DNA of 64,000 nt from the NCBI GenBank assembly GCA_965541585.1, contig CBEUCH010000011.1:32001-96000 (forward strand), written 5' to 3'. The position numbers and the translations under genes were made by a program. The DNA comes from an uncultured bacterium. Lineage in GTDB: Bacteria > Zixibacteria > MSB-5A5 > UBA10806. Within the stretch, counting starts at the first letter, position 1; every line of letters begins with the position of its first letter. The notes under the pieces were generated by a model. The model worked only from the letters and a program-made list of their open reading frames with translations. It did not search any database and was not told the DNA's origin. Positions 2,182 to 45,044 of this stretch are shown here, piece after piece.

Positions 2182-5100
2182 GTGTTGTTTTACCGCCGTT
2201 TTATTTATGCGGTCATTTCGATTCTTCTTTTGACCGGGTCGTCGTGGTCGGAAACCATCCTTCGCCCAATCGAACGGGTTCCCTTAGCTGATATCCATAG
2301 AGAGAATATCTCCGGCAGGCATAGGTTTATATCAGATGTATCGAGGAAAAACCTTTTAGAGCTCGATCGCCCAGCGCCCTTTGCATTGCCCACCGCCAAA
2401 AGAGGGATTTCTCTGGAAGCTGCATTAATGATTGATACTCTTAACGTTTTGGCGCTGAAAGTGGAATTTCAAAGGGAGATGCCGGATGATCCCAACACCA
2501 CCGGTGACGGTACGTTCGATCTGCGCAGCTACGAACAATTTCTCACGGAGGAACAGCATTATATCGATCCCGGGCCTCATACCACGTCGTATTTCAATTC
2601 TCACCTGGAGGCCCTGAGGCGATACTGGTATTTCATATCCGATAAGAAGCTTGATTTAACCTGGGATGTATATCCCCGCGAGGAAAGTCTGGCCTATCGT
2701 CTACCGCAGCCGATGTCTTATTACGGCTCTGCGGCTACATTAGATGAAGTCGCTGAGAAGCTCGGATACTTCTTTATCGATGCCGTATCAATGGCAGATT
2801 CCGTTGCTCCCCAGATAGATTTCTCCGCGTATCAGTCGATCGTTCTATTCCATGCCGGTTCAGACCAGCAGAATAATATTCCGTTTATTAATAACACACC
2901 GCATGATCTCTTTACAGGATTTCTTATTTTGTCGGAGCCGGTCTACGTTGACAGCGGGACGGTGGGGATACAGGAGGGCTTGATAATACCGGAGGCGGCG
3001 TCCCAGGATAATCGCGTCACCGCCATAAATGCTGTTCTATCGCATGAATTCGGCCACCAGCTCGGACTGATCGATCTGTATAACACCCAGACTTTCTTTA
3101 CCCAGGTCGGCGACTTTGCCCTGATGGACAATAACGGGATGTCGGTGGGTGTTCAATTTCCCGACATAAGATCCACTGTCGGCGGTACGCTGCCGGTTTA
3201 TGCGTCAGCCTGGTCGAGAGCGTTTCTGGGATTCGATATCCCGCGAGAGATTACAGGCGGAATCGACATACCCTTGACTGCAGCCGCCCTTTCCGGCGAC
3301 TCCACTGAAATAATCAAAGTGCCCATGACCGATTTCGAATATATCCTGCTGGAAAATCGTCAACCGGACACCGATACGCTGGAACCGGATTATCCTTTCG
3401 ACAACGTGTTGATTGGCGATTCCTTAACCGGTGTTATACTCGGTCCGGGATATGCATATTTTGAGGGTAACGATACGGTTTTGGTCTCCGATGCCGAATA
3501 TGACCGGTTACTTCCCGGAGACGGGGTCCTGATGTGGCACGTCGATGAATATGTTGCCTACCAGAGTAATTTTCCAGGTTTCAATAATTACCAGACTAAC
3601 TCCCTGCAATGGGATAAGGATCGCAGATTCTTAACCCTTATCGAAGCTAATGGAGTTGTAGATTTCGGCGGGAATTATTACAGGGGATATGGAACTGACT
3701 CGGATTTTTATAAAGTCGGGAATAGCACAATGTTGACTCCCTTCACCAATCCCTCCTCCATGTCCAACCTCGGCGCCGACACGCATATTCATATCACGGA
3801 TATATCTGAATCGGATACGGTTATGACATTGGATATTGAGGTAGAATGGCTAATGCCGGGCTGGCCGCAGATGAGCTTTCCCCAACAGAATTCAGATCCG
3901 ATTCTGGTCGATATCGATGGAGACGATGCTCTCGAGATCCTGATTGCAGCCGATTCGGCTCTTTTGATTTACAGATATGATGGCGAGAAATTTATCACAA
4001 ATTCCGATTCCCTTCGATTTTATGGTTTTGATGGTAGCATACAAGCTTATCCGTGGGGCATCGCAGCCATTTGCGATACGACCATCTCGGATAGGCCGGT
4101 GCCGGTGGATTTCGATGGTGATGGTACGTATGAAATTGTTTTGCCGACCGTCTCCGGACGGTTGTACGCATTTTCACCTTCCGATGATAACGTGGACGGC
4201 AGAGCCGATGCGTTTCCCGGTTTTCCGATACAGATCTCAATTGGGGCCGTTACATCCGTGATAGCGGCTGATTTTGATTCCGCAGCCGGCACGGAATTGA
4301 TTGCGTTTGATGACAATGGAATAGTACACGCGGTAACCGGGTCTGCAACCGATAGCGTTATTTTTGATTTCGGCGCCCCGATACTTTCATCTGCTGCCTT
4401 TACCGTGGAAGGATATAACCTAATTGATGTCGCTTATATCCTTAATAACCAGGCCACGATTTCCCGGCTCATTTCTGATGCGGGAGGATTCGATTTCATG
4501 CTCGATTTTTCCATTCCGGCGGGCACTGAGGACACATGCTATATTGTTTCCGGAGATATCGACAGGGACGGCGGCCTGCCCGAAATTATAGCAGTCTGTT
4601 CCAGCCGGATAGTCCTGATTGAGGATGATGGATCACTGGAGACTTTTACAGAGATAGGCCAATCGTTGGGGCGTCCGGCGCTCGGCGATATCGACGCCGA
4701 TGGTTATCCTGAAATCATCGTTGCGGGCGATTCGAAAATATATGCGTTTGGCCGTAACGGCGTACTCATGTCCGATTTTCCAGTCGATCTAAGCCTGTAT
4801 GATCTGACGGGAGTAATCGCGGCGCAGCCGGTTCTGGGCGATGTCGATGAGGATGGTTTGCCCGATATCATAGTTGGATTGCCGGTCGGCGCAATTCACG
4901 CCCATAACTACCGGGCTGAGTGGATTGCCGGGTTTCCTCTTCCGAGCTCATTCGGAATCGATAGATCCTGCGCCCTGGCGGATATAGATAACGATGGAGA
5001 TCTGGATCTTCTGTCGATCGAGATGTCGGGTATGATAAGCGCCTGGGATATTTCGTTTAGCTATGATTACGTCGATATCCCCTGGGGCATGGATGGCGGT

Positions 5101-31100: not shown

Positions 31101-31311
31101 CGTCGGTCCCGGGGCCGAGTTCCGGGCGCCGATGGCGCAGGCGGTTATAGGCGGATTGACATCGTCCACTCTTTTAACATTGATCATTGTTCCGATAGTC
31201 TATACATTATTGGATGATATGGTAGCATTTGTCACCGGAAAGCGGAAGAAATCGAGAGCAGAGCTCGCCGCTGGAACCGGGGCCGAGGGTCTCGTAGTTG
31301 ATGATAAATAA
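28165..31311 (+). CDS. RND efflux transporter permease (AcrB/D/F family)
   Basis: [37 protein letters not shown]; 1048 aa. Confidence 0.95.
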
Positions 31312-32939
31312 TGTTGCCTGTCAAATTCGATAAGCTCTCCGGAAGCACTAAGCTTTTTCTGGATTTCATAAACTTTACCGGAGCCGCTCCCCGGTTCTAT
31401 AAATATGATTTCAGGGATCCCTCATCGTATGTGAAGGCAGCTGAACGAATTGACCGAAAATCTTACAAGAGAGAAGAACTGGTCTCCATTATACGAGATG
31501 CCACACATCATTTGAACTTACCGGAAAAAACGAAGGCTAATATTGATAAACTTGCAAACTCCGAGTGCCTTGTCGTCTTCGCCGGTCAGCAGGTCGGGAT
31601 GCTTCTGGGGCCGATGTATACGGTCATAAAGGCGCTTACAGCGTTCAAGTTAGCGTCGAAACTTGAATCCGAATTGGGCCGGCTGGTCGTTCCGTGTTTT
31701 TGGATGGCCACCGACGATCACGATTTCGATGAGATCAAAGACGTTCGCATGTTGAACCGGGCAGGGGAATGTATGGAAATCTCCTATGAACCTGTCTCTC
31801 CTCCGGCTGGCGCCCCGATGGCCGATGTCTTGCTCGATGACAGGATTGAGGATCTGATCAGCCAGGTGGAAAAAAATCTACTGGAGACCGAATTCACCGG
31901 TCATATCAAGAATCTATTGGAGAGCAGCTATATGCCCGGCAAACATCTGTCCGAGGCCTTCGCCGTTTTGTTCAATCAACTAATGGAAGATTTCGGCATT
32001 GTGCCGATAGATCCTAATTATCCTGATCTTAAGAAGATCATGGCGCCGGTGTTCCGCCGCGAAATTGAAAATCACAACGAGATATTCGAGAATCTTGAAA
32101 GACGATCATTGGATATTATCAGCGCCGGCCGCCACAGGCAGGTTCACAAGACCGGTGATACTCTTAATCTATTTATCAATAAGAATGGTAGAAGAAATAT
32201 AATTGTCGAGAAACGCAGGTTTCGCCTTGACGGTCATGACGGTATTTACAGCGGAGAACAGCTTCTGGAGATGCTGGATAAATCTCCGGAAAAGTTTTCG
32301 CCGAATGTCTGTCTGAGGCCCATAGCGCAATGTCTGGCATTTCCCACCGTCTGCCAGGTCGTGGGGCCGTCGGAGGCGGCATATTTTGCACAGATACAAC
32401 CTCTTTTCGATTACCTGAATGTTCCCTGGCCGGTGGTTAAGCCGAGGATTTTCGCAACAATTGTCGAGCCCCATATACAAAAGATATTCAAAAAACTCTC
32501 TTTAGATTTCGCCTTTTTGTATGACGATACCGAGCATGAGATAAGCCGAGCCATCAAAGAGAAATTTCCCCCGGAGACTCAGCAGAAAGCCGAATCTCTG
32601 AGATCCGAAATAGATAAACCGCTTCGGGACCTATTGAAATCATTAGAGAATTCAGATTCTGAAAGCGGCCAGGCTATCGAACATACAAGGAAGAGGATTG
32701 ATCACGAAATGAACCATCTCTCTAAGAAACTATTTACTGCCCATAAGAAACGCCATGAGACAGTTAAAGGACAGATACATCGTGCCGCAAAATTCCTTTT
32801 TCCCGTCAGCAAATTTCAGGAACGGGTACTATCCCCGTTGTATTTTGCAAACAAATTCGGTCCGGGTATTTTCAAAGAGATCGAGAGTAAACTCGATATC
32901 GATTCTGTGGATCATCAGATTATAGAGATCGGGAAATGA
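31311..32939 (+). CDS. bshC: Bacillithiol biosynthesis cysteine-adding enzyme BshC
   Basis: GQQVGMLLGPMYT; FWMATDDHDFDEI; FSPNVCLRP; GPSEAAYFAQ; QERV. Confidence 0.9.
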   Translation: MLPVKFDKLSGSTKLFLDFINFTGAAPRFYKYDFRDPSSYVKAAERIDRKSYKREELVSIIRDATHHLNLPEKTKANIDKLANSECLVVFAGQQVGMLLGPMYTVIKALTAFKLASKLESELGRLVVPCFWMATDDHDFDEIKDVRMLNRAGECMEISYEPVSPPAGAPMADVLLDDRIEDLISQVEKNLLETEFTGHIKNLLESSYMPGKHLSEAFAVLFNQLMEDFGIVPIDPNYPDLKKIMAPVFRREIENHNEIFENLERRSLDIISAGRHRQVHKTGDTLNLFINKNGRRNIIVEKRRFRLDGHDGIYSGEQLLEMLDKSPEKFSPNVCLRPIAQCLAFPTVCQVVGPSEAAYFAQIQPLFDYLNVPWPVVKPRIFATIVEPHIQKIFKKLSLDFAFLYDDTEHEISRAIKEKFPPETQQKAESLRSEIDKPLRDLLKSLENSDSESGQAIEHTRKRIDHEMNHLSKKLFTAHKKRHETVKGQIHRAAKFLFPVSKFQERVLSPLYFANKFGPGIFKEIESKLDIDSVDHQIIEIGK

Positions 32940-34063
32940 AAGTTGGGATTGTATGTTATCCCGTCAAAGGCGGTTCCGGCGTCGTGGCCTCGGAGCTGGG
33001 ACTGGCGCTTTCGTCAGCCGGGGTGGAGGTTCATTTTTTTTCTTATGCGCTTCCTTTCCGGCTTACCGGATTTGATTCGAAATTTATTTTTCACGAAGTT
33101 GAGGTATCGAATTATCCGCTCTTTAAATATCCGCCCTATACGCTGTCGCTGGCGACCAGACTCGCCGAGGAATCGAAAAGGGTGGGACTCGACATTATCC
33201 ACGCTCATTATGCCATTCCTCATGCCGTCAGCGGCTATATCGCCAGGCAGATTCTGGGGCCCGGCGGACCGAAGTTGATAACAACGCTTCACGGCACTGA
33301 TATAACGCTGGTGGGGCAGGATTCTTCCTTTAGGGCCGTCACGAAATTCTCGATGGAGGCATCGGACGCCCTCACCGCCGTCAGCAAGTATATCTGTGAC
33401 AGCACGCGCGAATCATTCGGGATCAAAAAGCCGATAAAAGTAATCCCCAATTTCGTAGATATATCGAGGTTCAAGCCTGATCAGACGGGTTGCGACCGCT
33501 CGGAGTTGGCGTTGCCCGATGAGAAAATCATTATGCATATGTCAAACTACAGGCCCGTCAAGAACGCCGACGATGTAATCCGGATATTCAAAATCGTAAA
33601 TGAGAAAATACCTTCAAAACTGCTTCTCGTGGGCGACGGTCCGGAGGCTCCCAATGTACTATCGCTTGCCGAACGGATGGGATTGAAAGAAAAGACCATC
33701 TTCCTTGGCGGACAGGATATGGTCGAATCCGTTCTCTGCAAAGCGGATCTATTCCTCCTGCCCTCGGCCTCCGAAGGGTTTGGTCTAGCCGCTCTTGAAG
33801 CTCTGGCCTGCGGTGTGCCGGTGATTGGCTCTATCGTGGGAGGTCTGCCCGAACTGATCACCGATGGCGAAGTTGGATTTCTGGAGCCGATCGGGGATGT
33901 GGAGGCGATGGCGAAAAGATCAATCGAAATCCTCTCGGACGATATGCTTCATCAATCGATGTCAAAAAACGCTCGCAGGTTGACGGTTGAGAAATTCGAT
34001 ACCAGAGATATTGTCAAGGAATACCATCAGTTTTATGAAGAGGTTTTGACAAATGAGTTCTAA
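32936..34063 (+). CDS. bshA: N-acetyl-alpha-D-glucosaminyl L-malate synthase BshA
   Basis: CYPVKGGSGVVASELG; YPLFKYPPY; HAHYAIPHA; TTLHGTDITLVG; GT4 EGFGLAALEA. Confidence 0.93.
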   Translation: MKVGIVCYPVKGGSGVVASELGLALSSAGVEVHFFSYALPFRLTGFDSKFIFHEVEVSNYPLFKYPPYTLSLATRLAEESKRVGLDIIHAHYAIPHAVSGYIARQILGPGGPKLITTLHGTDITLVGQDSSFRAVTKFSMEASDALTAVSKYICDSTRESFGIKKPIKVIPNFVDISRFKPDQTGCDRSELALPDEKIIMHMSNYRPVKNADDVIRIFKIVNEKIPSKLLLVGDGPEAPNVLSLAERMGLKEKTIFLGGQDMVESVLCKADLFLLPSASEGFGLAALEALACGVPVIGSIVGGLPELITDGEVGFLEPIGDVEAMAKRSIEILSDDMLHQSMSKNARRLTVEKFDTRDIVKEYHQFYEEVLTNEF

Positions 34064-34781
34064 AAAAACCGTAAAGCTGGACGTTCTGGCCATAGCGGCG
34101 CACTGCGACGATACAGAGATTGTCTCGGGCGGCACCGTAATAAAGCTCGTCGACATGGGTTACGCCGTGGGGATTCTCGATCTGACCGCCGGAGAATCCG
34201 GCTCACGCGGTAATGCCGAGACGAGAACCAAAGAAGCTAAATGCGCCGCTAAGTTGATGGGATTGAAATACAGGCATAACCTGGGCCTTCCCGACGCCGG
34301 TCTCTACGATACGCAGGAGAATGCTCTTAAGGTAGCCGAGGTTATCAGACAGACTGAACCGGAGATGGTGATACTGCCGTACTGGGAGCAACGTCACCCT
34401 GACCACGCCGCGGCCAACCGCATAGGTTACCGGGGGTGTTTTCTGGCCGGACTCGATAAGATGCCGATCCCCGGCGAGGCGCACCGTCCCCGAAAAATCA
34501 TATACTCGACATCGTTTCATGATACGAAGCCCACGTTTGTTGTGGATATCACCGAGCAGTTCGAGCGGAAATGCCAGGCGGTGGCCTGCTATAAGACGCA
34601 GTTTAAGGAGAAACCGGGCCAGCGCGAGGTCTTTCCACCGGCTCGCAACATCTTCGATTACATGGAAATCAGAAACCGGCAGTATGGTTATATGATCGGC
34701 GTCCGCTACGGGGAATGCTTCATTCAGAAGGAAAAGCTCAAAGTCGATGATCCGCTGAAATTGCCGGGCAAATCGATATAG
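34053..34781 (+). CDS. bshB1: Bacillithiol biosynthesis deacetylase BshB1 (PIG-L family)
   Basis: AHCDD; DLTAGESGSRG; RHPDH; follows bshA. Confidence 0.88.
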   Translation: MSSKKTVKLDVLAIAAHCDDTEIVSGGTVIKLVDMGYAVGILDLTAGESGSRGNAETRTKEAKCAAKLMGLKYRHNLGLPDAGLYDTQENALKVAEVIRQTEPEMVILPYWEQRHPDHAAANRIGYRGCFLAGLDKMPIPGEAHRPRKIIYSTSFHDTKPTFVVDITEQFERKCQAVACYKTQFKEKPGQREVFPPARNIFDYMEIRNRQYGYMIGVRYGECFIQKEKLKVDDPLKLPGKSI

Positions 34782-34859: not shown

Positions 34860-34865
34860 ATTTCC

Positions 34866-34958
34866 GGAAGAGGATGGGGTCTGGTGGCCCCTGCGGCCTT
34901 CAAAGCCGTTGGCGGCCGGTGTTCCCGGCCGCGGGAGGTTCGATTCCTCCCCCTTCCG
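34866..34958 (+). tRNA. selC: tRNA-Sec (anticodon UCA), CCA not encoded
   Basis: GGAAG 5' end; 6-bp D stem GGGGTC/GGCCCC with TGGT loop; anticodon loop CT-TCA-AA; long variable arm GCGGCCGG/CCGGCCGC; T arm GGAGG-TTCGATT-CCTCC; G discriminator; near selDAB. Confidence 0.95.
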
Positions 34959-35056
34959 GTGTTTAATGCGGGTTTACTCGCTTTAGTCGATAGATTCATG
35001 CGATTGCATAAACTCAAATCTCCCTTTCCGGTGCAAGGATCGTAATTAGACAATAG

Positions 35057-36196
35057 ATGGACAAAAAACCGATTCCTCTATGTGCGAATTGCCAGACGGC
35101 CATTGAAAGCCGATCCCTTGGTTATGGTGTGGTCTATATATGCAAGAATTGCGGCGGCACCGCCATAGGGATTAGCGCCTTGAAAAGACGTAATGCCGAT
35201 ATCAAATTTGTTAACGACATATGGCGCGAAACACGGGAACATCCGATTCTCGGAAATAAGGCATGTCCATTCTGTCTGAAGTTAATGAATAGTGTGCGAA
35301 GAAGTATAGAGGGCAAGGCATTCGAAGTAGATGTTTGCGCCAAATGTATGACGGTCTGGCTTGACGCAGGAGAGTCGGATTTTTTCCCAAAGACTGTTGA
35401 AGGCAAGGATCTATCTTATGCTGGAGATGACGGTCTATCCCCTGAGGCCCGCGAGGCGCTGGCGATCTTTAAAGTAAGAGAAAGAATACGTCAGGATATT
35501 GATGACGATTTCAAAAGCGAGTCTCCCGATTCAGCATCAAAGGTAATATTGACTATTCTGGGCTTTCCGGTTAAGTCGGGAGGGTCAACTCTAAACGTTG
35601 TCCCGTACGCCGTCTGGAGCATCGCGACGATTATAGTTCTGGCTTTTATCTTATCGTATTCAAATATCAATGATATTGCGCAACGCTGGGGAATGTTGCC
35701 TTCCGAATGGCACAGGAATTATGGCTTAACGTTTGTTACTTCATTTTTCCTTCACGCCGACTTTTTTCATTTGGTCTATAACCTCTATTTTTTCATGCTA
35801 TTCGGGAGCCATGCTGAACAGAATCTGGGGAAATGGCGTTTTATTCTCCTTGTTCTTTTTTCGCATCTGGTCGGGATTTTCTGCCATTTCCTGTTAAGTC
35901 CGGATGCAACGATTTCCGTGATCGGCGCCAGCGCCGGGATCTCGGGAGTTCTGGCATATTATGCTATCATGTATCCAAAAGATAAAATAACGATATTCTA
36001 TCTATTCTACTTTCAGTACGGTTGGCTACGACTGTCAGTGATATATGCTTTCGCGATCCATTTGATATTTCAAATAACCGGCCTGGTTTCACAACTGCTG
36101 GGAATGTCGCCGATTTCGTATATCGCTCATCTCGGGGGTATTCTTGTCGGCGTATGGACGGCTTTCTGGATCAAAAGCAGTATTAAAGAAGGCTGA
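35057..36196 (+). CDS. Rhomboid intramembrane serine protease with N-terminal zinc ribbons
   Basis: Four CxxC pairs; HADFFHLVYN; GASAG catalytic Ser; AHLGG catalytic His. Confidence 0.9.
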   Translation: MDKKPIPLCANCQTAIESRSLGYGVVYICKNCGGTAIGISALKRRNADIKFVNDIWRETREHPILGNKACPFCLKLMNSVRRSIEGKAFEVDVCAKCMTVWLDAGESDFFPKTVEGKDLSYAGDDGLSPEAREALAIFKVRERIRQDIDDDFKSESPDSASKVILTILGFPVKSGGSTLNVVPYAVWSIATIIVLAFILSYSNINDIAQRWGMLPSEWHRNYGLTFVTSFFLHADFFHLVYNLYFFMLFGSHAEQNLGKWRFILLVLFSHLVGIFCHFLLSPDATISVIGASAGISGVLAYYAIMYPKDKITIFYLFYFQYGWLRLSVIYAFAIHLIFQITGLVSQLLGMSPISYIAHLGGILVGVWTAFWIKSSIKEG

Positions 36197-36384
36197 TCTG
36201 AGAAGCTATCGTTCTCCTAGCGTACGAGAAATCTCTTTTTAGGAAATTGTGCAAGTTCAGAAGCCATGGTACCTAAAGCAGAAAGATTTTCCCCCCTTCC
36301 GGCTTTTTAGTGGAATAAAACGTCTCTTTTGGCGTATATTGTTTCAGTAATGGTTTATGTCCCGAAATAATAGCGTAGAAGTCC

Positions 36385-38319
36385 ATGCTTAAAAGAGTGA
36401 AAAGTCTCGCTCCGACGGTATGCATTAGTGTCTTTTTGCTTAACTGCATTATCGCTAATAGTGGAGAGTTCAATTTCGAAAAAGCCTATATGTGGTATAA
36501 TATCCGGGACGCCGGAATGAAGGGAGAATATATTTTCTGCGGTCTCGATGAAGGCCTTCTGGTACTGGATGGCACGGACCTGCAAAACGTCTCCGTCGCC
36601 GGCCAGGCCATCGATGGCAAATACCTGGGGAAATACCAATGGTATTCGGAAATGGCTATTGAAGGTGATTATGTTTATATGGCTAGATACGGTGGCGGAC
36701 TGTCCATATTCGAAATAACGGATCCCGAATCTCCTTCGGTTGTCGCCAATTACGAGGGATATATTACTGATGTTTTCGTTTCAAACGAAAGTGCTTATAT
36801 TACCATTAAAGAGTGCTGTCTTGAGATATTGGATGTTTCAAAACCCGTGGAGCCTCAAAAGAAGGGAGTGATCCCCGTTGAAGGGAAAGTAGAGGACGTA
36901 TTCGTAAATGGCGATTATCTCTTTATCGTTAATTCCGAAATCGACCGTGAATATTATGAGAAGGTTATTTCAAACAGTTGCCTCCAAATATATGATGTGG
37001 AAGACAGTGAGGAGCCTCGGATTGTCAGCGAATACAGTTTCGAAAACTCTGCTCGATCGATATTCGTAAGGGACGGCTACGCTTATGTTCTGGTAGATGA
37101 AACCGGAATGGAAATCATCGATGTTCGGGATCCGTATAATCCCGAAAGTATAGCCATAGGCAATTGCGATACCGGGGGATTATGCGCTGAAATCAAGCTG
37201 GAGGGATCCTACGCTTATTTATCTCCGACGCGTGGTACCTACTGCGTGTTTGATATCTCCGATCCGTCGAATCCAAAATTGATTAACGACGATCCATTCC
37301 CTTTGGCGGGATGCAGATTTTCCGTCAATGATAGTATTGCTATTTTTGAAACACGCGATCTCGGCATGTTTTCCGAAGGTTGGGCCATTGTCGATGTTAA
37401 AGATCCTCAACGGATTTCCATTATCAAAGATCAACGAGTAGATCAGCACATTCAGGACGCAGCAATTTCCGGAGATTATGCTTACGTACTAGAATGGGAG
37501 AATGGCTTGACCATTCTCGACCTCCGGCAAAAGCCGGGGAATGCGGTGGTATCGCATCTGGATATCGATGGGCATTGCGAAGAAATCATGGTGCATAGGA
37601 ATCATGCATATATACTTCGCAATGGCGGAAGCATGATAATAGTGGATATTTCTGACCCGGAGCTTCCTCAAATAGCTTCGGAATACGGGAAAGAATTGTA
37701 TATAGAAACGTTGTTAGCAAGGGACGACTACCTGTTTGCGGGCAGGCGAGACTATATAGATGTCCTCGACGTTTCCAAGCCTCCTGATCTTCAATATGTG
37801 AAGAGAATCGTAGCAACGGACCGAGTAGAATTCATAAGCATCGTGAATGAATACATGTATGTTTGTGCGGACGACTTCCAGATATTCGATGCCAGTGACA
37901 TACTCAACCCTGTGTTTCTCGGGAGTTACGGAGTGAAGTATCCCAGATCGATTCAGGTAAGGGATAACTTCGCGTTTATTGCGGCGGGTAATGAAGGGCT
38001 CGAGATTCTCGATATTACAAACCCAGCACATATTAAAAGCGTGTCCTCAATTAAACCGAAACAGATTGATGAAAGAAAGGAAAACCATGCTTCTTACGGA
38101 GTCTATTATAGTAAGGTAGTGCTCGACGGGGATCATGCCTTTGTTCTTACGAGGATGGATATGAAAGCTGTAGTGGCAATAGATATTTCCGATCCATACC
38201 ATCCGTTCTACGACGGCGAATTCGGCGGGATTTTCTCAGCGGATCATATAGTATTTTCACAGGGTCAAATCTACGTGCCCCAATTGTCTAATCTTCTTGT
38301 TCTCAAATACGAAAGGTAA
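36385..38319 (+). CDS. Secreted LVIVD-repeat protein
   Basis: Signal peptide; many repeats of the type YAYV...GLEILDISDP..P. Confidence 0.85.
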   Translation: MLKRVKSLAPTVCISVFLLNCIIANSGEFNFEKAYMWYNIRDAGMKGEYIFCGLDEGLLVLDGTDLQNVSVAGQAIDGKYLGKYQWYSEMAIEGDYVYMARYGGGLSIFEITDPESPSVVANYEGYITDVFVSNESAYITIKECCLEILDVSKPVEPQKKGVIPVEGKVEDVFVNGDYLFIVNSEIDREYYEKVISNSCLQIYDVEDSEEPRIVSEYSFENSARSIFVRDGYAYVLVDETGMEIIDVRDPYNPESIAIGNCDTGGLCAEIKLEGSYAYLSPTRGTYCVFDISDPSNPKLINDDPFPLAGCRFSVNDSIAIFETRDLGMFSEGWAIVDVKDPQRISIIKDQRVDQHIQDAAISGDYAYVLEWENGLTILDLRQKPGNAVVSHLDIDGHCEEIMVHRNHAYILRNGGSMIIVDISDPELPQIASEYGKELYIETLLARDDYLFAGRRDYIDVLDVSKPPDLQYVKRIVATDRVEFISIVNEYMYVCADDFQIFDASDILNPVFLGSYGVKYPRSIQVRDNFAFIAAGNEGLEILDITNPAHIKSVSSIKPKQIDERKENHASYGVYYSKVVLDGDHAFVLTRMDMKAVVAIDISDPYHPFYDGEFGGIFSADHIVFSQGQIYVPQLSNLLVLKYER

Positions 38320-38325
38320 GGGGAT

Positions 38326-40032
38326 ATGCAAATAGGCAAGTTTGGATTTAAGTGGCATAAATTGGCATTGATTTGCCTGCTATTCCTGGGATGTGGGGCT
38401 TCTTATAACCTTAGCGATTTCAGGGAATATTCGAAAAAGGATAGAGAATTTGATGCCAGGATGTATCCGGTTATGTCCACCATGAGGGGTGTTCACACGT
38501 ACGACGGAGAATGGCCCGACTGCACAGTTGCAGGGCGAAAGAATAAAGAGAAGAATTTGGAGAAATCTCTCGAGGAATTGAGTGAGATAGATACAACAGG
38601 TTGGCCAATCGATGACCAGATTGATTATATGATGAATTATAATAACGTGCGTTTGGAAAAGGAAATGGGCTTATCAGAAATCTATCACGAGAACTCTCCG
38701 TTCCATTATCTTGAGATGATTTACACGGGGCTGACCGCCATTCTTTTACGGGATCCTTATTTAGGTGAGGAGACTATGTCGTCGGTTCTAAGCAGAATCC
38801 GGAAGGTCCCGGAGTTTCTGTCGATCGCAGGAAAAAACTTGCGTTCATCGAATTATGCTGATTGTCAGTACTCCCTGGTTTCCGTACAAAGAACAACAGA
38901 CGTCATAAAAGGGGTATGCGATGATATCATAGCACGATATCCTGAGAGAAACGCCGAAATATCGTCGCTAAAGAATAAATCCGTTCTGGCTGCCAGGCAA
39001 TTTTCCCAGGATGCGTTAGAAAGGGCAACGGCGCCGGAGAGCGCTTTCTTTCTGGGAGAAGGGAATTATCGGATAGTGATCCGCGACCTTTTCTTTCTGG
39101 ATTTTGATTGCGATTCTATCATGAATCTGGCCGCCACCGTGTTCCATGAAGCTGATTCCCTGGAAAACTATTACAGGACGAAAATTCCTCATGACGAGGA
39201 CGCCTTTCCATGGCATCATGACTACATTGTCTATCCCGGATGGGATTCTATAATTGCGTACTCATCTTACCAAGAGGATCTCCTGGAGAGATTTCTTGAC
39301 GCTAATGATATAATTGCAATCCCGGATGGGCTGCTTAGAGTCGAATTCATAGAAGTACCTTCATTCCTTGAATCGAGATTTTTCAAGAAGGACGTGTTTG
39401 GCGGGCCCGGGCCCCTGGATACTAACCGAATCGCTTACTACTACATTGGTGAATCGGTAAGCTGGAGAGCTGATGGTGAGTCCCCTTTCGGCGTCGCTCC
39501 AAACAGGTCATTCAAGGAGAACATGGTCGAAAAGATTATACGTGGGAATTATCTGGTCTCGCAGATGGCTTCCACGAATCCCTCTATACACAGACAAATG
39601 AGCTCCGATCAAATGTATATCATTGGCTGGAATTATTACATATGGGAAGTTCTTTTGCAAATGGGTCTGTTCGAAAATCAGGATGAGATGCTTGCCGAGT
39701 ATTACGGCAGTTTGAAAACTATCGCCCTGCAAACGATAGCGGACGTCGGTTTCAATTTGGGCAAGCATGACGTTGATGTGTCGCGGAAGATGTTTATAGA
39801 TAGCCTGCAGATGGATTCTGATTACGCTGAATTTAGAACTTACTTTTCCTCGATATTCCCCTACAATAGTTTATCGTGTATCGTGGGGCGAGAATTGTTC
39901 AAGGACATGCGAAAAAAGGCACAGGCGTTGGAGGGAGTTGAATTCGATCTCGAATTATTCCACGGTAAGATACTAACTGAGGGCGCAATTCCGCCAATGC
40001 TGATCGCCAGAAAATACGGCTGGGAATTATAA
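38326..40032 (+). CDS. DUF885-family lipoprotein (divergent)
   Basis: Lipobox FLGC; GVHTYDGEWPD; C-terminal FDLELFHGKILTEGAIPP typical of DUF885. Confidence 0.7.
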   Translation: MQIGKFGFKWHKLALICLLFLGCGASYNLSDFREYSKKDREFDARMYPVMSTMRGVHTYDGEWPDCTVAGRKNKEKNLEKSLEELSEIDTTGWPIDDQIDYMMNYNNVRLEKEMGLSEIYHENSPFHYLEMIYTGLTAILLRDPYLGEETMSSVLSRIRKVPEFLSIAGKNLRSSNYADCQYSLVSVQRTTDVIKGVCDDIIARYPERNAEISSLKNKSVLAARQFSQDALERATAPESAFFLGEGNYRIVIRDLFFLDFDCDSIMNLAATVFHEADSLENYYRTKIPHDEDAFPWHHDYIVYPGWDSIIAYSSYQEDLLERFLDANDIIAIPDGLLRVEFIEVPSFLESRFFKKDVFGGPGPLDTNRIAYYYIGESVSWRADGESPFGVAPNRSFKENMVEKIIRGNYLVSQMASTNPSIHRQMSSDQMYIIGWNYYIWEVLLQMGLFENQDEMLAEYYGSLKTIALQTIADVGFNLGKHDVDVSRKMFIDSLQMDSDYAEFRTYFSSIFPYNSLSCIVGRELFKDMRKKAQALEGVEFDLELFHGKILTEGAIPPMLIARKYGWEL

Positions 40033-40070
40033 ACGGATTAGATACTCCGGGGCAATACAATTGGATCCTT

Positions 40071-40100
40071 GGAGGTTCGATTCCTCCCCCTTCCGGTGTT
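40071..40100 (+). repeat. attR-like duplicate of the tRNA-Sec 3' end
   Basis: 30/30 identity to 34934-34963. Confidence 0.92.
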
Positions 40101-40617
40101 ATCCGATGTTTCCCTCTTCCATTCGCAAAAACTCCAGCCCTTTATTGCTTATCTCATAATAGGTATGGTTGCGGTGCTTGATCCACTTGTTTTTGACGAT
40201 ACCTTTTCGGTATTGGATCATTTTTGGCTGGACTCTAATTAAGAGTCCCAGGTCACGAAGCTCCCTATGCCGTTCGAATACCGTGGCCCTGTCGATACCG
40301 ACCGATTTGGCCACCACCGCCGCATAATCGACCCCCATTACCGCGTGATGCTTCAATATCTTGAAATCCGTCTCATCCAGAAGCTTGAAAACGGGATCAT
40401 CAGCGAGGGTATGCTCATCATCCTCAACAAGAATCTCCTCCCAAGTCAATTTCACCAGCCTCTCCGGCTGGATGGATCGCAGGTTTCCACAGCCGGCTTT
40501 ATGGACGGAGAGCACACCGCTGTCGGGTTTGAGGAACCCCCTGATTTCGTCAGAGGGCTCAGGCCCACAGCATCGGGCGATTCTAAAGTCTTCCCTTATT
40601 CCAAGTGGATCGGTCAT
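40099..40617 (-). CDS. RelA/SpoT zinc-finger-like domain fused to DUF2250-like winged helix
   Basis: N-terminal RIARCCGPEPSDEIRGF...VHKAGC.NL; C-terminal KILKH...GVDYA...LGLL.RV...KHRNHTYYEIS.KG. Confidence 0.65.
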   Translation of the reverse strand: MTDPLGIREDFRIARCCGPEPSDEIRGFLKPDSGVLSVHKAGCGNLRSIQPERLVKLTWEEILVEDDEHTLADDPVFKLLDETDFKILKHHAVMGVDYAAVVAKSVGIDRATVFERHRELRDLGLLIRVQPKMIQYRKGIVKNKWIKHRNHTYYEISNKGLEFLRMEEGNIG

Positions 40618-40624
40618 AATTATC

Positions 40625-40652
40625 AATATACGGACTTTCTACCAATTGGCAA
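40625..40652 (-). promoter_or_regulatory. Leaderless-type promoter of the DUF2250-like gene
   Basis: Minus strand TTGCCA-16 nt-TATATT, then 7 nt to ATG 40617; no SD. Confidence 0.5.
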
Positions 40653-40712: not shown

Positions 40713-40742
40713 TTGAATTATCATCACCTATAAGCTTATATT
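40713..40742 (+). promoter_or_regulatory. Promoter of the selD-selA-selB operon
   Basis: TTGAAT-18 nt-TATATT; GGAGG RBS at 40763-40767. Confidence 0.5.
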
Positions 40743-40771
40743 CGGTAATACATTCTTGATATGGAGGAATG

Positions 40772-41845
40772 GTGAGCGCGAAAGAAGAAATATTCAAGCT
40801 GACTCAATTCGCCGCCTGTGCCGGGTGAGCGTCGAAACTCAGTCGCACTGAGCTCGTCCAGGTCCTGGGCGATTTGCACCTGCAGAAATTCGATAACGTG
40901 CTGGTGGGCACGGAGCTTTTCGATGATGCCGGGGTGGTTAGAATTTCCGACGATCTCGCTATCGTAACCACGGTGGATTATTTCACACCCGTGGTGGACG
41001 ACGCCTTCGATTTCGGCGCCATCGCAGCCGCCAACTCGCTCTCGGATCTATACGCAATGGGAGGAAAGGCAGTCGCGGCTATCAATATAGTCGGATTTCC
41101 GGAGAAAGATCTCCCGTATTCGGTGCTCAAGAAGATTATCGAGGGTGGCCTGTCAGTGACGAAGGAGGCCGGGATTCCAATCGTGGGTGGTCATACGGTT
41201 AAAGCGCCCGAGCCGTTTTACGGGCTTTCCATCACCGGAACCGTGAGACCGGACAGGATCTTGACAAACTCATCCGCTCAAACCGGTGACAATCTTTATT
41301 TGACAAAACCGCTGGGCACCGGCTTGATAACTACCGGTTTGAAAAACGGCAAAGTGACTCCCGAAATAGTTGCAAATGCGGTTGAAGTTATGAAAGAGTT
41401 GAACCGGTCGGCCTCCGAGGCCGTCAGGGCAGCCACAGAACATGAACAGTCTTACAACTGCGCTGTTACCGATATTACCGGCTACGGACTTTTAGGGCAT
41501 CTATCCGAAATGCTATCAGCATCGAAGAAATCTGCGGTGATAAATTATTCTACAGTACCGTTGATGCCGGGAACAATAGAGCTTGCGAAGCAAAATCTTT
41601 TCCCCGGCGGCAGCCGTTCCAATCTCTTAAACGTCGAGCCTGATATGTTATGGAGTGGGGCATTCGAAAAATACGAGCAACTTATCCTGGCAGACGCACA
41701 AACGTCGGGGGGACTGCTAATTTCCATAAGAGCGGATCTGGCGGGATCGCTGGAAACAGAATTAAAAAGACGGGATGTGAAATTCGCAAAGATCGGCGAT
41801 GTAGTAGAAAGGGCGGAATGGCTGATAAAAGTGGTAAAAAGCTAA
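40772..41845 (+). CDS. selD: Selenophosphate synthetase SelD, selenoprotein (UGA=Sec at 40826-40828)
   Basis: GTG 40772 (or ATG 40769) reads SAKEEIFKLTQFAACAG-UGA-ASKL, in frame with the ORF-track protein. DDAGV, TVDYFTP, ANSLSDLYAMGG, GGHT, TDITGYGLLGH and DAQTSGGLL motifs present. Confidence 0.93.
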
Positions 41846-43182
41846 AGCTCTCGCGGTTTCCGAGTATCTCATCGATACTGGAGGATGACCGCTTAAAGCC
41901 TCTTTTTGAAAAATGGTCATTTGTATTCGTCTCAGGCGAGGTCAAGAGGCTGGCGGCCGGGTTGAAGAAAAGCGCTCTTAAGGAAAGTAAGATTCCCTCC
42001 CGGAATGAACTGGTCTCGCAGGCCCTGAGGCTATTTGTAAAATATGATACCGATCTTATTCGTCCCGTAATCAATGGCACAGGTGTTATACTGCACACCA
42101 ACCTCGGCCGGGCGCCAATTGATCCGGATTTATATGACCAATTGAAAGACGCCGTCTGCGGTTACTCCAACCTGGAATACGATATTGATCAGAACAAAAG
42201 ATCTAAAAGAGGTCTGATGGCCGGCAGGATGATAGCCACTCTGGCGGGAGCGGAGGCCGGGATGATGGTCAATAATAATGCCGCGGCCGTATACCTGATT
42301 GTAGCCAATCTCGCCGGCGGCAAGGAAGTAATTATCTCCCGGGGCCAGTTGGTGCAGATCGGAGGCGGTTTCAGAATTCCGGAAATAATCGAACGTTCCG
42401 GGGCTGTGTTAAAAGAGATAGGCACCACCAATAAGACATCCCTGGCCGATTATAGAAAAGCCATAAACAAAAATACCGGTCTGATTCTGGTGGTGCATAA
42501 GAGCAATTTTATCCAGAGAGGTTTTACAGCGGAACCTGAGCCTGCCAGGATAGTGGAATTGGCGAAACAGAAAAGACTGCCGGTATGTTACGATCTGGGT
42601 TCAGGGCTTCTGGCATCCAGCACGAAATTTGCCTCTCTCGATGAACCGGACGTTATAGGCGCAGTAAAAACGGGCGCCGACCTGGTTTGCTTTTCAGGGG
42701 ACAAGCTTCTTGGCGGCCCGCAGGCCGGTTTGATAGTCGGCAAACAGAGACGGATATCGGCACTCCTTAAAGATCCCATTTATAGAGTGATTCGGCCGGA
42801 TAAGTTGACCATCGGTTTGATGGAAAAGACCCTGCTTGAATATCTGACCAGCAAATCGGTCAATCCCTGCCATACAATGGCATCAATATCAATCGACAGC
42901 CTTAAAAAGAGAGCAAATGTCATCTTAGCGGCCGTTCAGAGTCCGGATATCAAGACTGTTGATCTCAAGAGCTCTTTCGGCGGGGGCTCGCTGCCGGAGT
43001 ATGAGTTTGACAGTTTCGGGATCAAGATTGCAGGAAATGCCGTCACGCTTTCCGCGAAGCTTAAGGCTGCCTTGATTCCCGTGATTTGCAGGAGCATCGC
43101 TTCTGGCGTACTAATCGATTTAAGAACAGTATCCCCCGATCAGGACGGGAGCCTTATCGAGGCTATCAGTTCATGTTTGTAG
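41818..43182 (+). CDS. selA: L-seryl-tRNA(Sec) selenium transferase SelA
   Basis: VINGTGVILHTNLGRA; VNNNAAA; QIGGGFRIP; FSGDKLLGGPQAG (PLP Lys). Likely start ATG 41818. Confidence 0.95.
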   Translation: MADKSGKKLKLSRFPSISSILEDDRLKPLFEKWSFVFVSGEVKRLAAGLKKSALKESKIPSRNELVSQALRLFVKYDTDLIRPVINGTGVILHTNLGRAPIDPDLYDQLKDAVCGYSNLEYDIDQNKRSKRGLMAGRMIATLAGAEAGMMVNNNAAAVYLIVANLAGGKEVIISRGQLVQIGGGFRIPEIIERSGAVLKEIGTTNKTSLADYRKAINKNTGLILVVHKSNFIQRGFTAEPEPARIVELAKQKRLPVCYDLGSGLLASSTKFASLDEPDVIGAVKTGADLVCFSGDKLLGGPQAGLIVGKQRRISALLKDPIYRVIRPDKLTIGLMEKTLLEYLTSKSVNPCHTMASISIDSLKKRANVILAAVQSPDIKTVDLKSSFGGGSLPEYEFDSFGIKIAGNAVTLSAKLKAALIPVICRSIASGVLIDLRTVSPDQDGSLIEAISSCL

Positions 43183-45044
43183 TCGGAACGGCCGGACATA
43201 TAGATCACGGCAAGTCGGCGTTGGTACTGAAAATGACCGGCATCGATCCGGATCGTTTGCCCGAGGAGAAAAGGCGAGGCATGACCATCGATCTGGGATT
43301 TGCCTGGGCGGAGTTGCCCTCCGGTCAGACTATCGGCATAGTCGATGTGCCGGGTCACGAAAAATTCGTCAGGAACATGGTGGCGGGGGTCGGGGGAATC
43401 GATGCCGTGATTTTCGTGATTGCTTCCGACGATGGTTGGATGCCGCAATCCGACGAACATTTCCAGATTATCAGTCTTCTGGGAATAAAAACTGGTTTCG
43501 TGGCGCTAACAAAGAAAGACCTCGTCGATGATGAGCTTCTTCAGCTTCAGGCCGACGATATACGTGATCATCTTAAAGGCAGTTTTCTCGAGGACTGCCC
43601 GATAATACCGGTTTCGAGTGTCACGGGTGAAGGTGTAGATGAGGTGATGAAAACCCTTGATACCATTCTTACGGGCGACATTCAAAAGCCGGATCTCGGC
43701 GCAGCCAGGCTTTTCATAGACCGTCGCTTTACCATACAGGGGATGGGCACGGTTGTGACCGGCACCTTGCTGGAAGGTAGCCTGACGGTCGATCAGCAGA
43801 TCGAGATTCAACCCTCCGGGAAGACAGCAAGGATTAGAAACCTCCAGACGCATCAAGCCGAGATCGAAGAGGCTCGTCCGGGAAGCCGCGTAGCCATAAA
43901 TCTTGCGGGAATGGAAAAAATGGACGTGACCAGGGGCGACGCAGTTTGCGCTCCGGACTCCATTGCTCCGACTGATACGATAGCCGCCGAATTAACGCTT
44001 CTCGAGCGTTCAAAATTTCCTCTCAAAAACGGAATCGAGCTGTCATTTCTTCTGGGTACCGCCGATGTGCTTGCCAGGGTGTATATGCTGCAATCGGATC
44101 TTCTGAAGCCGGGTGAAAAATCGCTTGTCAGGCTTCGTTTGAAAGAACCGGTAGCGGCAAAGATCGGCGATCGCTTCATAATAAGACGTATCAGCCCCCA
44201 GGATACTATAGGCGGCGGAATAGTGCTCGATACCGAGGTTATGATCGGGAAAAAGAATAAGATCAAGCAGATCGAAATCCTTAAGGCCAGGCAGAGCCTT
44301 ACACCCGAATCCATAATCTCCTCAGAGCTTTTGAAAGAGAATAAGCTCTCGTTATCAAGATTTCAAATGAATTTGCCATATAGCAGGGACGAGATGAAAA
44401 GCGCCCTGAAATCGTTATCCGAGCGGGGGGACGTTCTGATGACCGGCAACATTATAGTCTCGAAGCATTCCCTGGAGAAATTTGTCGAACCGGCCTGCAA
44501 GTTAATTGAAGACGATCATCAGATGCGGCCCTGGGCCGGTGGCATCGAACCGGGGACTCTTGGCAAGAAGTTGAAAATAGCGCCTGAACGGCTTCCGGAG
44601 GTGGTAGATTATCTGGTATCGACCGGCAGGCTAGCTATTGAAAGCGGATTTTTAAAACACCCGGAGCACAGGGCCGAACTCAAGCCGGACCAGAAGGATC
44701 TGCAGGGCAAACTTAATGTACGGCTTTCCGCCAGCCCTCTGAGCGCTCCCATAAGGAAGGAATTTATCGACGAAGACCCAAGATACGAGATAGTTTTGAA
44801 TTTTCTGCGGGACCGGGGAGACATTATAGAATTAAAGGGGGGGATACTGTTTACCAGCAGGGATTTTGAGATGATAGTCAACAGAGTGATTGAATATCTA
44901 AAACAGGTCAAGCAAGCTAAAGCATCGGACATAAAATCACACCTCGATACCAGCCGTAAGTACGTGATTCCGCTTTTGGAAAAACTGGATCATATGGGCG
45001 TAACCGTTCGGAACGGCGATAACCGCACCTTAGCAAAGAAATAG
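43173..45044 (+). CDS. selB: Selenocysteine-specific elongation factor SelB
   Basis: GTAGHIDHGKS; RGMTIDLGFA; DVPGHEKF; C-terminal SRKYVIPLLE.LD SECIS-binding winged helix. Likely start ATG 43173. Confidence 0.96.
   Translation: MFVVGTAGHIDHGKSALVLKMTGIDPDRLPEEKRRGMTIDLGFAWAELPSGQTIGIVDVPGHEKFVRNMVAGVGGIDAVIFVIASDDGWMPQSDEHFQIISLLGIKTGFVALTKKDLVDDELLQLQADDIRDHLKGSFLEDCPIIPVSSVTGEGVDEVMKTLDTILTGDIQKPDLGAARLFIDRRFTIQGMGTVVTGTLLEGSLTVDQQIEIQPSGKTARIRNLQTHQAEIEEARPGSRVAINLAGMEKMDVTRGDAVCAPDSIAPTDTIAAELTLLERSKFPLKNGIELSFLLGTADVLARVYMLQSDLLKPGEKSLVRLRLKEPVAAKIGDRFIIRRISPQDTIGGGIVLDTEVMIGKKNKIKQIEILKARQSLTPESIISSELLKENKLSLSRFQMNLPYSRDEMKSALKSLSERGDVLMTGNIIVSKHSLEKFVEPACKLIEDDHQMRPWAGGIEPGTLGKKLKIAPERLPEVVDYLVSTGRLAIESGFLKHPEHRAELKPDQKDLQGKLNVRLSASPLSAPIRKEFIDEDPRYEIVLNFLRDRGDIIELKGGILFTSRDFEMIVNRVIEYLKQVKQAKASDIKSHLDTSRKYVIPLLEKLDHMGVTVRNGDNRTLAKK

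Follow-up and report, generated by a model that had tools for sequence, protein, structure and literature searches.

Long RelA/SpoT homologues such as E. coli RelA, B. subtilis Rel and M. smegmatis Rsh contain a CCHC zinc finger, which in RelA anchors on intersubunit bridge B1a of non-rotated 70S ribosomes according to the accessible part of the literature. As described in the available text of the sources cited in this paragraph, the RelA finger docks with helix 638–647 on the A-site finger and packs its sheet against uS19 (PMC4974054); contact of the finger domain (ZFD) with the A-site finger and uS19 is also reported in PMC5829649, PMC10235957 and PMC7797070. The ACT domain, which follows next after the finger, occupies the A-site cavity and clashes with accommodated A-site tRNA (PMC4974054). 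Domain 1 of the release factor RF1 contacts uL11 and RF3, and the domain following this arm (domain 2/4) lies in the A-site cleft or decoding centre (PMC3677378). In NEMF/RqcH the coiled-coil together with the middle domain contacts uL11 and H43/44, the stalk base, and in NEMF the sarcin-ricin loop as well (PMC4321881; bioRxiv 2020.09.03.281279).

The domain DUF2250 (PF10007) has no such record. Literature surveyed mostly outside subscription journals and supplements yielded no description of a ZFD-DUF2250 fusion or of any DUF2250 function; by name the domain appeared in a table row in the accessible part of PMC9674854 and in an unrelated paper on a human gene. Here we describe a small gene of an uncultured member of the Zixibacteria in which a RelA-type finger is joined to DUF2250, and compare it with its relatives and with other DUF2250 proteins.

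A RelA-type finger joined to a DUF2250 winged helix

A preliminary description of the window, by which we mean the whole 64,000-nt stretch of DNA analysed, had proposed a small open reading frame coding for a fusion of the RelA/SpoT ZFD to DUF2250. The frame indeed encodes a protein of 172 aa (P0001, Table 1). Residues 11/12–62 match the ZFD of RelA/Rel (PDB phmmer E 5e-7; profile E 1e-10) and residues 81–165 match DUF2250 with 53.8 bits at a cut-off of 24.4. Enzyme domains had been reported as missing, and Pfam/NCBIfam-type searches likewise returned no synthetase, hydrolase, TGS or ACT match. The relA/spoT matches in NCBIfam are restricted to the finger stretch (residues 11–63, E 8e-8 to 3e-4), which is also covered by the precomputed PF28438 assignment. 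Since these matches are confined to residues 11–63 and the remainder is DUF2250, the protein is, judged by its domain content, not an RSH enzyme. With the long RelA/SpoT homologues it has the CCHC finger and the docking helix in common, but it differs from them in having no hydrolase, synthetase, TGS, helical or ACT domain and in a KxDS sequence replacing the GRG loop. A domain of nucleic-acid-binding type follows the finger in both P0001 and RelA, an ACT/RRM domain in RelA and a winged helix here. The AlphaFold2 model (mean pLDDT 86, pTM 0.57) consists of a beta-rich small finger and a winged helix bearing a long, low-confidence wing; the homodimer prediction score of 0.01 carries no weight as evidence.

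Table 1. Positions of the features discussed, numbered along the window
Feature	Position	Strand	Basis or remark
tRNA-Sec gene (selC)	34865..34959	+	
5.1-kb insert between selC and duplicate, with rhomboid, LVIVD-repeat and DUF885 genes	34964..40070	+	GC, domain matches
Exact 30-nt duplicate of selC 3' end (att-like scar)	40071..40100	+	2-nt overlap with the gene's stop codon
ZFD-DUF2250 protein gene (P0001), 172 aa	40099..40617	-	ORF; AlphaFold2 model
DUF2250 winged helix-turn-helix, residues 80-165	40123..40380	-	Pfam 53.8 bits; fold matches
Long basic wing, residues 126-156, KHRNHTYY motif at its end	40150..40242	-	conservation entropy
Variable acidic linker, residues 63-79	40381..40431	-	least conserved stretch: entropy 2.9; D/E 6 vs K/R 1
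RelA-type zinc finger (ZFD/RIS/CC), residues 11-62, ligands C16, C17, H39, C43	40432..40587	-	sequence matches
Promoter-like site TTGCCA-16-TATATT, ends 7 nt before ATG	40625..40652	-	sequence
Promoter-like site for selD, TTGAAT-18-TATATT	40713..40742	+	sequence; similar words by eye upstream of selD in five relatives
selD, in-frame TGA (inferred Sec) at 40826-40828	40769..41845	+	neighbour only
selA and selB ORFs	41650..45044	+	neighbours only

The finger shows 42–52% identity to Rel fingers over about 50 aa. Its four zinc ligands are invariant in all 61 aligned sequences and correspond to C612, C613, H634 and C638 of E. coli RelA (alignment; PMC10235957, accessible part). CCHC spacing is retained in 88/88 loci, the CC itself being a selection criterion, and conservation of the non-ligand positions common with Rel, namely R53, W59 and the N after the last Cys, is 88–100%. 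Comparing 119 family fingers with 79 Rel-type fingers, we found that the helix docking on the A-site finger is kept and is more basic than in Rel (+1.6 vs +0.2), whereas a neutral K-x-D-S takes the place of the basic T-[RK]-G-R-G loop seen in Rel, the net charge falling from +1.5 to -0.1. With the helix kept and the GRG loop lost, the docking surface offers mixed evidence. A plasmid search with the ZFD-DUF2250 protein gave 19 partial matches, of which those with a named feature are rel/relA genes.

The wing is the most conserved part of the protein (entropy 0.59; recognition helix 0.99, ZFD 1.48), and KWIKHRNHTYY is present in 82/88 loci; the tip of the wing is modelled with low confidence (pLDDT 61–62 at residues 131–150). 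The H-T-Y-Y motif is common to stand-alone, tandem and fused DUF2250 proteins. Winged helices are known to bind RNA in SelB, Rio2, eS10 and eS25. In fold searches the C-terminal half (residues 69–172) matches winged helices of the MarR/ArsR/PadR type (Foldseek E about 5e-4; VIA Z up to 11.8) and that of Rio2, which ranks first (Z 12.1, rmsd 2.2 Å, 84 aligned) and is tied with MarR (Z 11.8). The matches to the winged helices of eS10 and eS25 are weak and not significant, and beyond Rio2 and RF1 no ribosomal or hibernation protein was among the matches listed. Identity to the MarR/ArsR/PadR regulators is 9–22%, and P0001 differs from them in its wing, which spans about 30 residues and is better conserved than the recognition helix. 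In the ESM Atlas the ZFD-DUF2250 architecture forms an automatically named cluster of 260 members, the other matches being generic winged-helix clusters.

Relatives are numerous. Out of 286 candidates 246 were scored as ZFD-DUF2250 relatives, both domains being found in 119/120 among the matches listed; their source names point to Zixibacteria and Poribacteria. Among GTDB genomes 269 of 291 pattern matches were relatives, and the best 80 of these 269 were kept as loci. The gene is present in 117/201 genomes of the window's phylum and in 48/61 genomes of a second phylum, nearly always as a single copy; the two genome sets share members with the 80 loci and do not count as independent of them. 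A search of viral contigs with P0001 gave no relatives. DUF2250 itself had been called mostly archaeal; archaeal members exist, but stand-alone copies also occur in bacteria (Desulfurella, Desulfofundulus, Athalassotoga and others), and the domain was scored in both Sulfolobus and Thermus controls. A DUF2250 protein of Cetobacterium (P0164) carries a 90-aa C-terminal extension of no recognised family.

Promoters, neighbouring genes and the selenocysteine locus

The gene was described as divergent from selD with back-to-back promoters; it is indeed divergent from selD-selA-selB, and promoter-like sites were found on both strands (Table 1). We scored the start region in 88 of 90 loci, three duplicates among them, with the start as assigned here. 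A TAnnnT word occurs 4–9 nt before the start in 35/88 loci, compared to a background of 10.5% among 1692 long ORFs of the window's genome, and a Shine-Dalgarno word in only 5/88, compared to 38% in the same genome. Together with the promoter-like site directly upstream these counts suggest leaderless transcription in part of the family and support the start at 40617; the P0001 mRNA is probably leaderless. In 80 dereplicated upstream regions no operator was found, the only element in common being the -10 box. The best palindrome with 3-bp half-sites remained at shuffle level (20/80 vs 15–21). ATAT-N5-ATAT exceeded the shuffles (10/80 vs 3–6), which probably reflects the -10 box.

The preliminary description had further suggested a regulator of selDAB. 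All six carriers of the window's family have the gene divergent from selD, in one case across a contig break, and in two of them another gene lies between the two. Outside this family the arrangement is not kept: in the best 80 of 269 loci sel genes are found within the flanks, which were fetched up to 8 kb and are shorter on many contigs, in only four loci, all of them close relatives, and tRNA-Sec in none. The next family has no sel gene within 12–16 kb in any of its four carriers, and in genome G084 selC lies 2 Mb from the gene, while G185 and G160 have the two on different contigs. Taken with the lack of a clear operator, this speaks against the suggested regulation.

In the window's phylum selA is present in 191/201 genomes, comprising 114/117 carriers and 77/84 non-carriers of the ZFD-DUF2250 gene (Fisher p 0.10, ignoring kinship). 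Thus 77 of the 191 selA-positive genomes have no ZFD-DUF2250 match, and in family f5 selA is found in 17/17 genomes but the gene in 1/17. Only ten genomes are selA-negative, of which three, at 82–93% completeness, are carriers. The presence of selA in 77/84 non-carriers indicates that Sec does not need the gene and that its adjacency to selD is local synteny. In the other direction, selA was found in 15/15 further carriers, whose genomes partly overlap the phylum set, so at the genome level the gene may depend on Sec. As a Sec component the gene fails on both counts, linkage to sel genes and presence wherever the Sec trait occurs. SelD itself is probably a selenoprotein, since its in-frame TGA at 40826 lies in a CAG-U-ASK motif; the true selD start is at 40769 instead of 40874 as in the ORF list, and one TGA is found within selD in four of five relatives, the fifth ending at a contig break.

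Other neighbours vary by lineage and show no common pathway. In the best 80 of 269 loci the most frequent were DUF819 (33), met-zincin (31), nitroreductase (25), LOG-family protein (24), phosphofructokinase (24) and isoaspartate methyltransferase (22) genes; a glutamine synthetase gene was near in four. The upstream gene is divergent in 40/74 loci.

On its other side the gene had been described as convergent on the end of tRNA-Sec. The abutting sequence is indeed identical to that end, but it is a 30-nt duplicate, and the actual tRNA-Sec gene is located 5 kb away. Between the two copies lies the insert listed in Table 1, which has a GC content of 43–46% compared to 45–53% in the flanks and in which no integrase was seen. 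In another genome of the genus (G129) a tyrosine integrase faces the selC 3' end. The duplicate, the lower GC of the insert and this integrase make an integration scar the simplest reading, and the duplicate-bounded insert here together with the integrase in G129 points to selC as an integration site in this genus. The ZFD-DUF2250 gene is located outside the insert, and we therefore rejected the idea of a mobile or island gene. A third, 63% copy of the selC 3' end lies at 36277–36306, and in G159 a similar selC fragment adjoins an HD-CE gene. The insert also codes for a rhomboid protease fused to two TFIIB-type zinc ribbons (35057–36196). Directly upstream of selC we noticed a bshC-bshA-bshB1 bacillithiol cluster scoring above the NCBIfam cut-offs (31311–34781); bshB1-like genes precede selC in four relatives.

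Other N-terminal partners of DUF2250

A DUF2250 profile search yielded 2581 representatives; 17 proteins were scanned among the 150 matches listed, so that the census of fusions is partial. Four of the 17 have a release-factor match ahead of DUF2250. The corresponding family consists of 75 proteins, mostly of 204–232 aa, from Desulforamulus, Sporohalobacter, Desulforudis and other anaerobic Firmicutes. Their first 110 residues correspond to RF1 domain 1: a profile search against the PDB returned RF1 at the top (E 1e-6), ahead of RF2 (1e-3) and of designed coiled coils (from 4e-3), 36 of 43 members match prfA, and among 7550 frames the arm profile places the genome's own RF1 on top, followed by RF2. 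Superposition of the model on RF1 gave 1.8 Å over 100 columns, but with an E of 0.055 and at rank 46. The wing of this family is nearly neutral (+0.9), unlike the much more basic wing of the ZFD fusion (+6.8). Neighbourhoods differ among nine metagenome loci (L133–L141), and a phage search with P0161, a protein of this type, gave no relatives.

In haloarchaea we found a protein of 287 aa (P0159; L232–L235, positions 3001–3290) with two DUF2250 domains behind a conserved N-terminus of 90 aa, present in four genera and encoded on plasmids. In all four N-termini the best match is RqcH_arch in NCBIfam (positions 305–411, E 3e-6 to 0.04) and NFACT_N in Pfam (positions 326–398, E 4e-5 to 0.013), with scores below the curated cut-offs. 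The match was not seen with the whole haloarchaeal protein as query and was missed in the PDB search. Against bacterial RqcH the likeness is weak (hhalign 23.7%; the own RqcH ranks fourth of 7550 with an E of 1.4). Viral contigs searched with P0159 contained no relatives. This arm has an invariant Trp39 and the proteins are annotated merely as DUF2250. RqcH (NFACT_N) is found in 40/41 genomes of the window's phylum. From these comparisons DUF2250 appears to have three partner arms, of which the ZFD and the RF1 arm are firm and the RqcH-like arm is moderately supported.

Further architectures include tandem double and triple DUF2250 proteins, many proteins without any sensor domain, and a single sequence in which the domain is fused to a non-ribosomal partner, HPPK. 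No longer DUF2250 fusions were scored among 8000 candidates, a weak null result because the known fusions of 271 aa and 287 aa were missed too. In a tree of the winged helices (57 rows, 96 columns; P0017 and L167 left out by the motif pattern, one archaeal domain entered twice) the ZFD-fused and RF1-fused clades have different stand-alone copies as their neighbours (95/87 and 83/94), and the archaeal members form a clade of their own (99/97). A single clade for the ZFD- and RF1-fused winged helices was nevertheless not rejected by the test (p-AU 0.167). Whichever topology holds, two different arms were attached.

A possible role on the ribosome

By a narrow balance, and on sequence comparisons, we favour the view that the protein is a small ribosome-binding factor whose targets are ribosomes with a vacant A site. 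The preliminary description had called it undescribed and tied to ribosome status, a suggestion strengthened by the two further fusions of DUF2250 to ribosome-docking arms. All three N-terminal partners come from A-site factors, and each arm is a documented ribosome contact. As the arms are the non-catalytic grips of these factors, DUF2250 itself most likely acts on the ribosome. The RelA ACT domain and RF1 domain 2/4 both lie in the A-site cleft or decoding centre, where the two fusions would accordingly place the winged helix. Since the finger binds non-rotated ribosomes and the position of ACT clashes with accommodated A-site tRNA, the targeted ribosome would be one whose A site is empty. 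The retained CCHC spacing and docking helix, the peak of conservation in the long basic wing instead of the recognition helix, and the lineage-varying neighbours without a clear common operator argue in the same direction. Against it stand the fold matches, which are mostly DNA-binding regulators, the lost GRG loop, the near-neutral wing of the RF1-arm family, the weak RqcH match, the structural E of the RF1 arm, the HPPK fusion and the partial census. The divergent upstream neighbour is commonly seen for regulators, and the single clade compatible with the tree test also weighs against it.

In the proposed mechanism the finger would dock P0001 at the site of RelA and the winged helix would take the position of the RelA ACT domain, where the long basic, histidine-bearing wing could grip rRNA, tRNA or mRNA in the empty A site. 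The likeliest job would be holding or protecting ribosomes that are idle or stalled, and hence also competing with Rel; at the level of sequence, such protection, competition with Rel and a catalytic role of the wing histidines are indistinguishable. The proposed likeness to hibernation and rescue factors (HPF/RaiA, Balon, HibA/AHA, as far as described in the accessible sources) would lie in a small factor sitting on inactive ribosomes, at the A site or close to it, although Pfam, NCBIfam and PDB searches with P0001 returned no sequence match to these families.

Alternatively, the protein could be a DNA-binding transcription factor reading the state of the ribosome: its arm would park it on idle ribosomes, release would free the winged helix for operators, and the three fusions would be three builds of the same sensor. 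The MarR/ArsR/PadR-like fold, a fairly conserved recognition helix, the divergent upstream genes, the tandem DUF2250 proteins, which suggest pseudo-dimers, and a JGI label as predicted transcriptional regulator would fit. We nonetheless consider it rather unlikely, as the loci have no clear common operator, their palindromes being at shuffle level or probably the -10 box, the neighbours form no common pathway, and a sensor domain is missing altogether from many DUF2250 proteins. An ordinary zinc- or redox-sensing regulator, with the RelA finger recycled off the ribosome as a metal site or protein contact, would explain why the four ligands are invariant while the basic loop is lost, and nitroreductase genes near 25 of the best 80 of 269 loci and the bacillithiol genes within the window could point the same way. 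It is distinctly improbable, however: it leaves unexplained why DUF2250 also carries the RF1 and RqcH arms, non-ligand Rel positions are conserved, and bacillithiol genes are near none of these 80 loci, for which reason we rejected a bacillithiol link.

A dedicated selenocysteine component, regulating selDAB or aiding UGA recoding on the ribosome like the winged helices of SelB, would account for the adjacency to selD throughout the window's family and for selA in nearly all carriers, and competition at stop codons would be in keeping with the release-factor arm of a relative. We regard it as very improbable in view of the rarity of sel genes near the loci, the many selA-positive non-carriers, family f5 and the distant selC of G084; moreover, the borrowed arm resembles RF1 more than RF2, the factor that reads UGA. 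DUF2250 is also found in haloarchaea and gave scores in Sulfolobus and Thermus, which to our knowledge are without Sec. The last explanation, a broken rel gene of which a remnant was joined by chance to the adjacent gene, takes up the observation that only a Rel fragment is present. We rejected it as practically negligible, since the same genome has a separate full-length rel (a 718-codon frame on contig C8) and the fusion is conserved at 160–180 aa in 87/88 loci from two phyla.

The gene and its ZFD-DUF2250 fusion are real, and the protein is probably a ribosome-binding factor rather than a selenium regulator. For the domain as a whole we tentatively put forward, at slightly less than even weight, that DUF2250 is an A-site ribosome factor of bacteria and archaea which acquired three docking arms and whose His-x-x-His-Thr-Tyr-Tyr wing acts on RNA. 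DUF2250 would be the working part and the anchor exchangeable: the ZFD, RF1 domain 1 in Firmicutes, the RqcH coiled-coil/middle arm in haloarchaea, or none in stand-alone copies. The ZFD-DUF2250 architecture can already be seen in databases; in the literature surveyed we found no description of the pattern of three arms or of a ribosomal reading of DUF2250. The three fusions yield three separate, sharp predictions, and relatives are available in the cultured, named genera Desulforamulus, Desulfurella, Haloarcula and Halorientalis.

Hibernation and quality-control factors are poorly conserved and their discovery is ongoing, as stated in the accessible part of PMC10901736. If our reading is true, it would place a widespread domain of unknown function on the ribosome and provide a candidate factor of this kind in both prokaryotic domains. 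The RelA finger would then be a portable ribosome anchor outside the (p)ppGpp enzymes, possibly a natural competitor of Rel, and the DUF2250 proteins would represent a new class of translation stress factors whose anchors are interchangeable.
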